Source: an uncultured Collinsella sp. (GTDB lineage Bacteria; Actinomycetota; Coriobacteriia; Coriobacteriales; Coriobacteriaceae). From it: a stretch of 64,000 bases of DNA. The notes beneath the pieces were generated by a model. It searched no databases. It had not been told where the DNA came from and was given only the letters and a program-made list of their open reading frames with translations. Each line of letters begins with the position of its first letter. The stretch's first letter is position 1. Location: the NCBI GenBank assembly GCA_959019945.1, contig CAUEQD010000006.1:47611-111610 (forward strand). Direction: 5' to 3'. Of this stretch, positions 3,781 through 6,089 are shown one piece after another. The translations under genes were made by a program, and so were the position numbers.

Positions 3781-3818
3781 GGCCGGCCCGACTGATGTGT
3801 CGATCTGTCGGGCCGGCC
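3781..3818 (-). terminator. 12-bp perfect hairpin GGCCGGCCCGAC-N14-GTCGGGCCGGCC downstream of the 60-aa ORF
   Basis: Seen directly. There is no clear U-tract, so the terminator role is tentative. Confidence 0.45.
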
Positions 3819-3954
3819 GAGAATGGTGAAGAGATCTCGCTGTTGAATGAACGAATGTTACAAGCAGCTCTTCAAGGCGCTTTGGGCGTTGGCTGGGGCT
3901 GCGCAGTCAATCGCATGCAGTGATAGGCGAGGCGATTGCTCGATGAGCCGGCGA

Positions 3955-4137
3955 CTAGTTCTGTGCTGCACTCGTCCCGGTGCCGTCGTTGTCTGCCGAG
4001 TACCAGAATGCGTAGGCCGCAACGACGGCATCATAGACGGCTGCGACTACGTTATCCACGACGGCTGCAAAGTTGACCACAACGGGAACGGGGCCGGTTT
4101 TGGAATCCATCTTCTCTACTTCTGGGGTCTCATACAT
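3955..4137 (-). CDS. 60-aa Cys-free Val/Ala/Asn/Asp-rich peptide; candidate RiPP precursor
   Basis: AAGGAGA lies 7 nt before ATG 4137, and the ORF begins 12 nt after the rSAM stop. Sequence: MYETPEVEKMDSKTGPVPVVVNFAAVVDNVVAAVYDAVVAAYAFWYSADNDGTGTSAAQN. Confidence 0.65.
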   Translation of the reverse strand: MYETPEVEKMDSKTGPVPVVVNFAAVVDNVVAAVYDAVVAAYAFWYSADNDGTGTSAAQN

Positions 4138-4149
4138 GGGAACATCTCC

Positions 4150-5196
4150 TTAGAATTGTGACAGGACGCTCAGGTCGCCTAGATCATCGTCGATCAGGTC
4201 GATATAGAGGTCGCCGTCCATATTGATGTCTGCAATCAACGATGAGATCTCTTCCATCTCGTCAATCGAGTGCATACGATTGGCCAACGCGGTAACAACG
4301 GGCTTATCCCAAACGGTTGCCATTCCGGCATCGTAGTATTCCTGAAGGCTGTGTTTGCGAACGTTTCCGATGATGAGAGGTATATAGGGGGATGCGACGA
4401 TATCGCCATTGGCGTGGATGGCCACTTGGTCAAATTGCATTTGCAGTTGAGGGAATCTGACCAAGTGGTCGATGGGGTCGCCCCACTCAAGCATGAAATA
4501 GCCTCGATAGTCCGGATCGTATCGAAGGTCATTGATCGTGTTGACTAGTCGACGGTATTGATTATTCGAAGGGCGAATCGTGCGGTTTCTTCGGGCTCTA
4601 CCGAGGAGCATGAGCGGCTGAACTCTAAGGTCAATTCGGTCAGTTCTACCCGACGATTTCAGCTTGTCTCGAAGCATCGTGCAAACTGGTTTGAAATCGT
4701 CGACATTGAACGATGTCGGACAAAAGGCAATTGAAAGGTGCAGTGAGGTTTCGTTCAGCGTGATATCGATGGCGTCGAGCACCCGGTCGTATAATCCCGA
4801 GAGTCCTCGCATATGTTCGTGAGAATCGCGTAGGCCATCGAGGCTAAACTGTATGCCGTTTAAACCGGCGCGTTCGAGCTCATGCAAAGTATTTGAGTTT
4901 GCGAGCAGACCGTTTGACACGAGGTTGCATTTGACGCCAGATGCGCTGAGCCGCCGCAAGGACTCGATGACAAGATCCTTTCGCAGGAGGGTCTCGCCTC
5001 CGCAGAAGCAGAAGCTAAAGGGGTGCATTTGACAAATCGAGTCGACGAGTTCGAGGACTTCGTTGTCGGATAATTCGTTCGCGACGACATCGTTTTCTCC
5101 ACTGTTGTTGAAGCAGTGTAGACAACGAAGGTTGCATTTGTTTGTAATGTCGAGCGCAACGCTGTGGGGCGCTCCGATTATTGCCGGCATGCTCAT
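4150..5196 (-). CDS. Radical SAM enzyme of PqqE/AlbA-like peptide-maturase type with a cysteine-free SPASM-like C-terminal region
   Basis: Motifs: CNLRCLHC, CGGETLLRKDL, VSNG, QFSLDG. The tail VAIHANGDIVASPYIPLIIGNVRKHSLQEYY resembles the end of a SPASM domain, but there is no Cys after residue 172. Confidence 0.9.
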   Translation of the reverse strand: MSMPAIIGAPHSVALDITNKCNLRCLHCFNNSGENDVVANELSDNEVLELVDSICQMHPFSFCFCGGETLLRKDLVIESLRRLSASGVKCNLVSNGLLANSNTLHELERAGLNGIQFSLDGLRDSHEHMRGLSGLYDRVLDAIDITLNETSLHLSIAFCPTSFNVDDFKPVCTMLRDKLKSSGRTDRIDLRVQPLMLLGRARRNRTIRPSNNQYRRLVNTINDLRYDPDYRGYFMLEWGDPIDHLVRFPQLQMQFDQVAIHANGDIVASPYIPLIIGNVRKHSLQEYYDAGMATVWDKPVVTALANRMHSIDEMEEISSLIADINMDGDLYIDLIDDDLGDLSVLSQF

Positions 5197-6089
5197 TATT
5201 GCTTCTTATCGAGCGGGCGAACAAACAGCTTGACGTCGCCCGAGTCGAGCTCATTGGGCAGGGTGCCGACTAAGGAAAAGCCAAGGCGCTGGTCGGAATG
5301 GTCAAGTTGTTCGGCGATTGGGGTGGAATCAGGCGCGTCAATTCTGAGCGCGCGGTAGGCTTTGGGAGCGGAAGATCCGTAGTATTCCGCAAGGCGGTCG
5401 AGCACACCGGCAAGCAGCGTGGAGCTGCATGAGATAAATTTGATGATGACGCTGCGGCCGGCGGGATTAGTGGCCGGCTCGCATATTATCAATCCATTAA
5501 TTTCTCCGGACTGGCTCGTGAGTAGAAAATAATCATGGGTAAAGGAAAAGAGCCTTTGGCGAAGAACCAGAAAGTTCTCCAATTCGGGCTCAACGTCGAA
5601 CTCAGAGAAATAGATCCTATTGCCATTTTTGGACTGTTTTGCAGAGAGGGATTTTGCAGCCGCCTCTTCGATTTCAGCAAACCTGCTCGCGTCCGCGAGA
5701 ATAAGCAGCTCGTCGGGATTCACCGATGTTAGGTAATCGGAGCCGAAAGGGTCGTTCATATATCTCCCTTCTTTCTTCCAAACGATAAGACAGTTTACGG
5801 TCAGGCTATGCAGGGTTTGGGCCAGGTCATGCGCTAGCGTCTCGCGCGGTTGATCTGGGTATTTTTCTTGGAACAGACGGAGAATTTTGGGCAAATCGCA
5901 GGTGCCGTCGCATAAGTCAAGAATCTCTTTAGCGACCCTGTTGAGGATCGTATAGATTTGTTTCCCATCTGAGCTTAGGACGCTCAGGCGGTTATTTGGT
6001 TCACTGCGAAGGTAGCTTGGGTCGAGGGGGATAGGGATGACTCCAGGCAATGATGAGATTTGCGCGCTCCAAACATTCACGGATTCCAT
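5196..6089 (-). CDS. PqqD-like RiPP recognition element fused to a C-terminal GNAT-like domain of uncertain activity
   Basis: AAGGAGA precedes ATG 6089; the 70-codon upstream extension in the track runs through the AT-rich promoter. The PqqD-like segment is YTILNRVAKEILDLCDGTCDLPKILRLFQEKYPDQPRETLAHDLAQTLHSL. The stop overlaps the rSAM start as TAATG. Confidence 0.8.
   Translation of the reverse strand: MESVNVWSAQISSLPGVIPIPLDPSYLRSEPNNRLSVLSSDGKQIYTILNRVAKEILDLCDGTCDLPKILRLFQEKYPDQPRETLAHDLAQTLHSLTVNCLIVWKKEGRYMNDPFGSDYLTSVNPDELLILADASRFAEIEEAAAKSLSAKQSKNGNRIYFSEFDVEPELENFLVLRQRLFSFTHDYFLLTSQSGEINGLIICEPATNPAGRSVIIKFISCSSTLLAGVLDRLAEYYGSSAPKAYRALRIDAPDSTPIAEQLDHSDQRLGFSLVGTLPNELDSGDVKLFVRPLDKKQ

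Follow-up and report, generated by a model that had tools for sequence, protein, structure and literature searches.

The DNA analysed here is a 64,000-nucleotide stretch of an uncultured Collinsella sp. (contig CAUEQD010000006.1, positions 47,611 to 111,610; hereafter the window). Three minus-strand genes near its start probably form an intact cassette for a ribosomally synthesized peptide with post-translational modification (RiPP) that is altered by a radical S-adenosylmethionine (rSAM) enzyme, in a widespread but uncharacterized family. Our analysis found the general features of such a pathway: a RiPP recognition element (RRE) domain, an enzyme with the CxxxCxxC and GGE motifs, and a conserved short open reading frame (ORF) with a leader motif. 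Pathways that combine an RRE with an rSAM enzyme are a known kind of system, and many rSAM RiPP families are still uncharacterized. As the preliminary description of this DNA had held, no characterized class fits the enzyme architecture; the enzyme signature, the partner protein, and the type of substrate are all unmatched. The family is set apart by a CxCGGE motif together with the loss of the SPASM cysteines, by an RRE-GNAT fusion without the coenzyme A (CoA) loop, and by Cys-free, transmembrane-like substrates. It is a candidate new RiPP class, and since it matches no characterized class, working out its product should bring to light either an rSAM reaction not seen before or a known one carried out in a new way.

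The first gene, ORF1 (5196..6089, minus strand), encodes a partner protein of 297 amino acids with an RRE and a GNAT fold, as seen from a Pfam PqqD match, an AlphaFold2 model, and Foldseek. The second (4150..5196, minus strand) encodes the rSAM enzyme of 348 amino acids, which contains the sequence CNLRCLHC and was identified by a Pfam Radical_SAM match (E 2.5e-17), an AlphaFold2 model, and a family alignment. The third (3955..4137, minus strand) encodes the precursor peptide of 60 amino acids, MYETPEVEKMDSKTGPVPVVVNFAAVVDNVVAAVYDAVVAAYAFWYSADNDGTGTSAAQN, recognized as an ORF and from homologous short ORFs beside homologous enzymes. The preliminary description had reported these three coupled ORFs, with a PqqD-like segment in the first, an rSAM enzyme in the second, and a TAATG overlap between the ORF1 stop and the rSAM start, and our analysis confirmed all of this. 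It had also placed the Shine-Dalgarno sequence AAGGAGA after the rSAM stop codon, with a spacing of 12 nt to the peptide gene. The 12 nt hold from the stop codon to the ATG, but AAGGAGA, as read from the sequence (4145..4151, minus strand), overlaps the TAA and does not follow it. That account of the unit was right but did not include the GNAT fold, the loss of the SPASM cysteines, the divergent ATP-binding cassette (ABC) exporter, or the DUF1648 protein.

ORF1 starts at an ATG behind AAAGGAG; the mechanically delimited ORF reaches 6299, and the start that gives 297 amino acids is used by the gene calls in 10 contigs and by all homologues. The window region is 99.9% identical to RefSeq NZ_OY725717.1, which labels the three genes no more specifically than 'PqqD family protein', 'radical SAM protein', and 'hypothetical protein'. 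The RefSeq version of the peptide (L177 5256-5411) is a 51-residue hypothetical protein that starts at Met10, so that the conserved Y-x-x-P leader motif is cut off.

Judged from sequence comparison, the three-gene arrangement goes far beyond what chance would produce: distant genomes repeat the gene order together with a conserved peptide leader. The relatives of the rSAM enzyme comprise 589 proteins, with 518 genomic and 532 metagenomic loci. We examined more than 25 loci from Collinsella, gut Clostridia, Gorillibacterium, Paenibacillus, Clostridium felsineum, Cellulosilyticum, and metagenome contigs. The recurring order is a PqqD-containing protein of approximately 280-300 amino acids, the rSAM enzyme, an ORF of 47-78 amino acids, an ABC exporter without a peptidase domain, and a DUF1648/SdpI protein; the stop and start codons of the RRE-protein and rSAM genes often overlap or abut in the relatives. 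A minority order of rSAM enzyme, RRE protein, and peptide was found in L088-L090 and L102-L104. In the loci examined, homologous short ORFs do co-occur with the rSAM homologues, the point of the genome-neighbourhood check proposed earlier. The short ORF adjoins the rSAM/RRE pair across the sufficiently long related loci where it was found, giving 23 distinct peptides; its conservation beside homologues had been the main test on which the RiPP interpretation could fail, and the interpretation withstood it. No entry describing the family was found in Pfam, NCBIfam, PDB, or the searchable literature, and term look-ups in the RRE-Finder, RaS-RiPP, and rSAM-compendium papers turned up no mention of it.

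Two variants of the arrangement were observed. Many Collinsella genomes also carry a paralogous cassette (L056-L074, e.g. L056 4988-9508), in which the rSAM enzyme is 48% identical and which has its own 67-residue precursor (MYEKPVVDNMNPTRASTLGTETWFDMYYIVWG...), a 113-residue membrane protein, and an ABC exporter; both cassettes were found in one genome (L021 and L072). In a divergent subfamily, represented by L107, L108, and L111 (approximately 4980-9160), an extra rSAM enzyme of about 450 amino acids lies between the family rSAM gene and the RRE-GNAT gene, and the precursors have two Cys residues flanking a long Ala/Gly/Val-rich core. These two Cys residues may mark an added thioether or disulfide step.

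The leader motif Y-x-x-P-x-[VIMT]-x-x-[LMV]-[GDN] lies within the first 15 residues of all 23 peptides. Its first part, Y..P.[VIMT], is matched by at most 2% of the small ORFs in the same loci, with the true precursors counted in. A 2025 RRE survey gives W/Y/LxxP/L/I as the recognition sequence of PqqD-type RREs in lasso, pyrroloquinoline quinone (PQQ), and sactipeptide pathways, and the family leader motif fits this sequence (PMC12710340). We infer that the short ORFs are the substrates bound by ORF1, for which the leader motif is the best available evidence. The interpretation of an RRE, an rSAM enzyme, and an adjacent short ORF as a RiPP pathway is thus supported by the family synteny and the conserved leader motif.

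The peptides share a layout in which the leader is followed by a variable hydrophilic linker and then by a transmembrane-like stretch of 20-45 residues rich in Ala, Val, Gly, and Ile; this stretch is bordered by aromatic residues, with an acidic residue or acidic tail behind them. In the window peptide, the leader reads Y-x-x-P-x-V, and the core, which is rich in Ala and Val, contains the repeat V[VY]D[NA]VVAA twice; there are also an aromatic motif, AYAFWY, and a tail that is acidic, and the last residues are ...SAAQN. The absence of Cys from this 60-residue ORF, noted previously, was confirmed. Subfamilies have the core motifs TWLW.E, EWVWETYY, AVWAAAWYAT, and, at the C-terminus, [ST]Q[IV]D.TP; the window peptide has AYAFWYSA. 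None of the core positions, the aromatic and acidic ones included, is conserved throughout the 23 precursors, and the core in L096 contains no Trp. Searches of Pfam and NCBIfam gave no meaningful match for the window peptide or for five homologous peptides. A match of one peptide to the toxin SdpC (E 0.18) was not significant.

The rSAM enzyme combines the signature of a single-cluster enzyme with a Cys-x-Cys dyad. The rSAM cluster site CxxxCxxC consists of C21, C25, and C28, and the SAM-binding GGE of G66-G67-E68; in an alignment of 144 family sequences with 31-99% identity, these residues are conserved in 140-144 of the 144. Directly before the GGE stand C63 and C65, present in every sequence of the alignment, which form the invariant CxCGGE motif. 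The thiols of C63 and C65 would point into the barrel interior, because residue 64 is a variable hydrophobic residue between the invariant positions 63 and 65, as expected from β-strand periodicity. The C-terminal half keeps the SPASM/twitch β-hairpin signature ANGDIV.SPY.PL..GN. No Cys column of at least 50% occurs after position 79 in the 144 sequences, the window enzyme has no Cys after C172, and no Pfam SPASM match to it was obtained; with no auxiliary-cluster cysteine motif in its C-terminal part, the enzyme does not belong among the canonical SPASM/twitch proteins. Other invariant polar residues, namely D120, H126, R130, N164, Q193, R200, W238, D240, D243, H244, and Y271, suggest an elaborate active site.

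The AlphaFold2 model of the enzyme (mean predicted local distance difference test score, pLDDT, 84) has SkfB, PqqE, BlsE, DesII, and SuiB as its nearest folds, at a TM score of approximately 0.6. Sequence matches in the PDB were SkfB (E 1.3e-24), BlsE (1.1e-13), PqqE (6e-12), MoaA, and CteB, and all were limited to the core. No NCBIfam family reaches its cut-off, the best match having 101 bits against a cut-off of 425. With all NCBIfam matches far below cut-off, the enzyme falls in no family with an established non-peptide substrate, a placement that the preliminary description had named as contrary to its proposal. A role in anti-phage defence, such as that of viperin, was considered and rejected, as the similarity to pVip (55 bits, residues 13-135 only) is that of the generic rSAM core; PADLOC gave no match for ORF1, the peptide, or the membrane proteins.

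In the pathway that we propose, the N-terminal PqqD-type RRE of ORF1 would bind the Y-x-x-P-x-V leader of the 60-residue peptide. ORF1, which is translationally coupled to the rSAM enzyme, would presumably form a complex with it and present the Ala/Val-rich, transmembrane-like core, with the GNAT-fold half serving as a docking or scaffold domain. At its single [4Fe-4S] cluster the enzyme would then produce a 5'-deoxyadenosyl radical and with it remove a hydrogen atom from the core. The divergently transcribed ABC transporter would carry the product out of the cell, and the producer would be protected by the DUF1648 membrane protein, perhaps together with the small membrane protein at 6266-6619.

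We tentatively suggest, as the leading guess, that the reaction could be an L-to-D epimerization in which C63 or C65 returns the hydrogen atom. The suggestion is made by analogy, since in EpeE and PoyD, known rSAM peptide epimerases, the hydrogen atom is supplied by a conserved cysteine of the protein (PMC8326336). Epimerization is favored because there is no auxiliary cluster to accept an electron, because the invariant thiols would lie beside SAM like the hydrogen-donor cysteines of EpeE and PoyD, and because the substrates are aliphatic and have no universal anchor residue. A backbone modification also fits better than a residue-specific cross-link, because the cores are rich in Ala, Val, Gly, and Ile and have no universally conserved residue.

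Several points weigh against this pathway and its proposed chemistry. The rSAM enzyme is not orthologous to EpeE/YydG, with a PDB similarity that covers about 95 N-terminal residues (amino acids 14-108, E 1e-6); TIGR04078 is not among its 25 best NCBIfam matches, and no orthology to PoyD was found either. A YydG-like enzyme is found in the neighboring cluster instead. DesII and BlsE have no auxiliary cluster, so the loss of this cluster leaves oxidative or other chemistry open to the enzyme. The subfamily motifs W.W.E, [ST]Q[IV]D.TP, and AYAFWYS/AVWAAAWYAT could be cross-link sites, and the CxC pair and the invariant His and Asp residues could bind an unrecognized metal or Fe-S site. No leader protease is encoded in the module that contains the cassette. 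Finally, in approximately two thirds of the related Collinsella loci a deletion has inactivated the cassette, and therefore selection for production is not universal.

A different reaction is, in our view, unlikely on the whole but nearly as probable as epimerization: the enzyme may be an oxidative cross-linker that installs bridges of the C-C, C-O, or C-N type at residues that are aromatic or acidic, like those of streptide, darobactin, triceptides, and rotapeptides, and passes the electron back to its only cluster, the rSAM cluster. Its closest neighbors in fold and sequence, SkfB, PqqE, SuiB, and CteB, are cross-linking RiPP maturases, and many precursors carry the aromatic motifs TWLW.E, EWVWETYY, and AYAFWYS/AVWAAAWYAT or the C-terminal [ST]Q[IV]D.TP. 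A base could be provided by one of the invariant polar residues D120, H126, R130, D240, D243, H244, and Y271, and DesII and BlsE show that electron return to the rSAM cluster is possible. However, the characterized cross-linkers of this lineage all keep their SPASM/twitch clusters, whereas the present family has lost every such cysteine. Moreover, a cross-linker would have to act without any aromatic or acidic position common to the 23 precursors, and on the Trp-less core of L096.

The partner protein ORF1 consists of two domains. The PqqD-type RRE occupies approximately residues 17-106, of which residues 40-102 are covered by Pfam PqqD (PF05402) with E 1.3e-8 and 35.4 bits (cut-off 23.4), and PF05402 also matches in 10 of 10 ORF1 homologues. 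The C-terminal GNAT-fold domain covers approximately residues 120-292 (about 170 residues; AlphaFold2 model with a pLDDT of 82). Foldseek aligned this half with RimL, SpeG, and MccE at a target TM score of 0.62-0.72 (E about 1e-7), and the sequence similarity to SpeG is weak (E 0.011). The fold is therefore that of GNAT, while the acetyl-CoA pyrophosphate loop was not found. The loop motif Q/RxxGxG/A at β4-α3 is absent from all 133 ORF1 family members examined, positions 208-242 contain no conserved Gly, Gln, or Arg in these members, and neither a GNAT/acetyltransferase model nor any other Pfam entry matches the C-terminal part in 10 members. Canonical binding of acetyl-CoA by ORF1 is unlikely on this evidence, because β4-α3 has neither the Q/RxxGxG/A loop nor a conserved glycine.

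A +42 Da acetylation had been among the modifications envisaged in the preliminary description; the GNAT fold of ORF1 gives this idea a structural counterpart, but it is weakened by the missing acetyl-CoA loop in the 133 members. We regard it as distinctly improbable that the domain is a working acyltransferase that N-acylates the peptide with an acetyl (+42 Da) or a longer acyl group, with the RRE serving both activities. The clear fold and the faint SpeG similarity speak for such an activity, as do the residues R177, F181, G199, F271, and E280, which are highly conserved in the domain across the family. On the other side, besides the lack of acetyltransferase models and of a conserved Gly at 208-242, the Lys found at position 247 in 83% of the family is Ala in the window protein. 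The GNAT-fold half is most likely a docking or scaffold domain and not an acetyltransferase. The breadth of the ORF1 family was visible only by an exhaustive profile/hidden Markov model (HMM) search, which gave 126 clusters at 50% identity with E<=1e-30 and 328 with E<=1e-10, the members being nearly all 270-300 amino acids long and matched over their full length. A word-based protein search retrieved close Collinsella relatives only, and a profile built from the locus-derived homologues added five distant ones.

The comparison with characterized classes supports the separate position of the family. The discrete PqqD-type RRE, rSAM enzyme, and short ORF follow the logic of PQQ and mycofactocin, and PqqD and PqqE are among the weak matches, which would be in line with a peptide that is a redox-cofactor precursor and is not exported. 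We consider this extremely unlikely. The scores are far below the cut-offs for PqqE (TIGR02109, 62.9 bits against 381), PqqD (TIGR03859, 25.7 against 46), and MftC (TIGR03962, 58.6 against 265). There is no pqqB/C, mftD/E/F, or dependent dehydrogenase gene within 10 kb. The peptide has no E-x3-Y motif and no C-terminal GVY motif, its end ...SAAQN differing from the Val-Tyr of mycofactocin, and the cores are hydrophobic over about 25-45 residues. In addition, the cassette is found in the company of exporters, SdpI/DUF1648 proteins, and quorum-sensing genes. Sactipeptides and ranthipeptides do not match either, as the peptide has no Cys, the enzyme has no auxiliary-cluster cysteines, and the scores with the models for StsB, SkfB, and PapB fall well short of the cut-offs. 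There was no equivalog-level match to TIGR04078 of the YydG/EpeE epipeptides, and neither a B2 protease nor a lasso cyclase was found among the called genes within 10 kb on either side in 10 contigs.

Among the SPASM maturases, PqqE/PqqD, MftC/MftB, StsB/StsC, and SkfB share the rSAM core and the overall fold (TM about 0.6), and the PqqE/PqqD-type systems also share the discrete PqqD-family RRE protein and the W/Y/LxxP leader recognition sequence. In contrast, the present family has lost all seven SPASM cysteines and has the new, family-specific motifs CxCGGE, QPLM..GR, and WGDP.DH..R; its RRE protein has an extra GNAT-fold domain, and its substrates are hydrophobic and Cys-free. DesII and BlsE, which hold ranks 3-11 among the structural neighbors, resemble the family in having a single rSAM cluster only. 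However, they act on nucleotide-sugar small molecules and have neither an RRE partner nor an adjacent peptide.

The epipeptide system of B. subtilis (epeXEPAB/yydFGHIJ) has in common with the cassette a short precursor, an rSAM enzyme, and an ABC transporter; its product is a hydrophobic, membrane-active peptide toxin, as that of the cassette would be. The proposed mechanism would also be shared, with hydrogen abstraction at Cα and return of hydrogen from a cysteine (PMC8326336). It differs in that EpeE has retained an auxiliary cluster and does not depend on a separate RRE protein, while the family studied here has no EpeP-type protease and has precursors with a YxxP leader and a much longer core. 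Lasso peptide systems, with a B1 protein and a YxxPxLxxxG leader, share the PqqD-family RRE and a leader of the form Y-x-x-P-x-[VI]-x-x-[LMV]-[GDN]; here, however, the modifying enzyme is an rSAM protein and no B2 protease or cyclase is encoded within 10 kb. Proteusins of the polytheonamide type have Val/Ala/Gly-rich cores and plausible rSAM backbone chemistry in common with the family, and B12-binding rSAM enzymes occur both in polytheonamide clusters and in L076 and L085. The family differs from them in having no nitrile-hydratase-like leader, and its rSAM enzyme is not related to PoyD by the tests that were run.

The genes around the cassette point to a secreted toxin or signal. In the window, an ABC exporter of 534-539 amino acids with a transmembrane domain and an ATPase (Pfam ABC_membrane and ABC_tran) is encoded divergently at 6701..8320 (plus strand), and no C39 peptidase domain was found in it. 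An exporter of the same type adjoins the cassette in L056, L091-L096, and other loci. Upstream of the exporter, at 6266..6619 (plus strand), lies a gene for a small membrane protein of 117-132 amino acids, according to the gene calls in L004, L005, L006, and RefSeq; its match to DUF3784 is weak (E 3.5e-5, below cut-off), and it may have an accessory or immunity role. Immunity may also be conferred by the DUF1648 membrane protein of 217 amino acids (1730..2383, plus strand; Pfam DUF1648, E 1.1e-12), which belongs to the same module. In other loci the cassette is followed by a DUF1648 or SdpI protein (L076, L085, L086, and L091-L095), and L095 combines SdpI with an ArsR/SdpR-like regulator; transporters of the ABC-2 immunity type were seen in L076, L085, and L091, and Agr/LytTR quorum-sensing genes adjoin the cassette in L094 and L096. 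With export by the ABC transporter and protection of the producer, the product would most likely be an exported, membrane-active, bacteriocin-like toxin.

A second ABC half-transporter gene (8446..9006, plus strand) was identified from a partial Pfam ABC_tran match, which covers profile positions 30-136 only, and from NCBIfam alignments to the last 165 residues or so of full-length exporters. Only the C-terminal part of the ATPase domain is left, and with neither a transmembrane domain nor a Walker A motif the gene resembles a deletion remnant.

From the DUF1648 gene to the ABC remnant, window positions 1703-8768 (approximately 7 kb) move as a unit. The GC content of this module is 0.43-0.57, against 0.62-0.67 in the flanking chromosome. 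A copy in L007 (6429-13171) is 98-99% identical and lies in another genomic context, with integrase and NikA-like genes beside it, and in about 16 Collinsella species-representative genomes the intact cassette matches the window DNA without a difference over 3 kb (100% identity). Recent horizontal spread of the module is suggested by the high identity of the L007 copy at a different place and by the complete identity of the intact copies across about 16 'species'. A plasmid location was considered and rejected, since the sole 'plasmid' match is an 899-kb Collinsella replicon with housekeeping genes beside the cassette. Within the module, a 169-residue ORF (2863-3372) stands out with a GC content of 0.61-0.68 and had no Pfam or NCBIfam match; the L007 copy lacks the larger part of it (2955-3332).

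Many Collinsella loci carry deleted alleles. A 1,267-bp deletion, corresponding to window 6241..4975, was found in 35 species-representative genomes (among L031-L055, L075, L077-L084, and L087). Missing from these alleles are the promoter and ORF1 as well as the rSAM gene's first 74 codons, which include the cluster site, and the junction is identical in all 35, with flanks that differ by up to 10%. Another deletion, of window 6210..5430, was found in three genomes (L026-L028). The deleted alleles retain the peptide gene, and most of these loci also retain the adjoining start of the exporter gene; at the ORF level, L032 has exporter sequence up to the junction, and in L055 it is mostly replaced by unrelated genes.

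These alleles, the remnant state of the second ABC gene, the likeness of the core to a transmembrane helix, and the 'hypothetical protein' with a later start in RefSeq would also fit a short ORF that is a plain small membrane protein, or a cassette that is a silent relic here, with an RRE protein and an rSAM enzyme that yield no peptide product. We consider this very unlikely, as the three genes are intact in the window and unchanged in the 16 or so other species-representative genomes, the leader motif is conserved across phyla, and the peptide gene has a strong Shine-Dalgarno sequence and is tightly coupled. We therefore favor an intact RiPP cassette within what appears to be a horizontally acquired, bacteriocin-type module with producer and immune non-producer alleles.

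The cassette is ecologically visible, and its host here, Collinsella aerofaciens, is a very common human gut species; the exact rSAM protein occurs in 4,319 blocks of a metagenome collection, mostly from the human gut. The polymorphism of intact and deleted alleles in Collinsella would make it a tractable case of bacteriocin producers and cheaters in the gut. In its widest form, our proposal would be a RiPP class with a cluster-less, SPASM-derived rSAM enzyme, an active-site Cys-x-Cys dyad, and an RRE/pseudo-GNAT partner, which introduces several D-residues or another backbone change into Ala/Val/Gly-rich ribosomal peptides to give membrane channels like gramicidin or polytheonamide, and which is widespread in the Firmicutes and was acquired horizontally by Collinsella aerofaciens, where producers with intact alleles coexist with immune non-producers whose deletion alleles retain the exporter and immunity genes. 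This combination as a whole is speculative and unlikely to hold in every part.

The region between ORF1 and the exporter genes (6090..6265) is an AT-rich divergent control region, recognized from its sequence and its GC content of 0.46, compared with 0.62-0.67 in the flanking chromosome. It contains a perfect 10-bp palindrome, ATATCGATAT, at approximately 6181-6190, upstream of ORF1, and further imperfect inverted repeats (window 6100-6220), which may be an operator for a regulator. Consensus scans for promoters and terminators gave nothing above the shuffled background, and no sigma-70 consensus site was found in 6090..6265. At the other end of the unit, a GC-rich hairpin at 3781..3818, found as an inverted repeat and in a minimum-free-energy fold, had been described as closing the operon. 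The 12-bp perfect stem is present, within arms of 16 nt at 94% complementarity, and the fold of the 3' region that contains it has a z of -5.2, but it lies 137 nt past the peptide stop codon and was not called as a terminator by the consensus scan, because it has no U-tract. The hairpin is possibly a terminator without a U-tract or an RNA-stabilizing stem.

A neighboring, unrelated RiPP-like cluster lies at window 1-1573 (minus strand) and continues past the window start; it is seen in L001 at 13631-16567. It consists of a DUF5969 protein of 241-246 amino acids with an Asn-rich middle (NVVLNANAVTNANIILNANGMANANANAQNNAN), followed by a YydG-like rSAM enzyme (96.5 bits on TIGR04078, where the cut-off is 300) and by an amide N-methyltransferase that is HemK/PrmC-like; the window edge truncates these last two. 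This rSAM enzyme was considered as a paralogue of the cassette enzyme and set aside, as it is YydG-like and the identity is 24% over the core only. With an epimerase and an Asn N-methyltransferase, the cluster resembles the polytheonamide-type proteusins.

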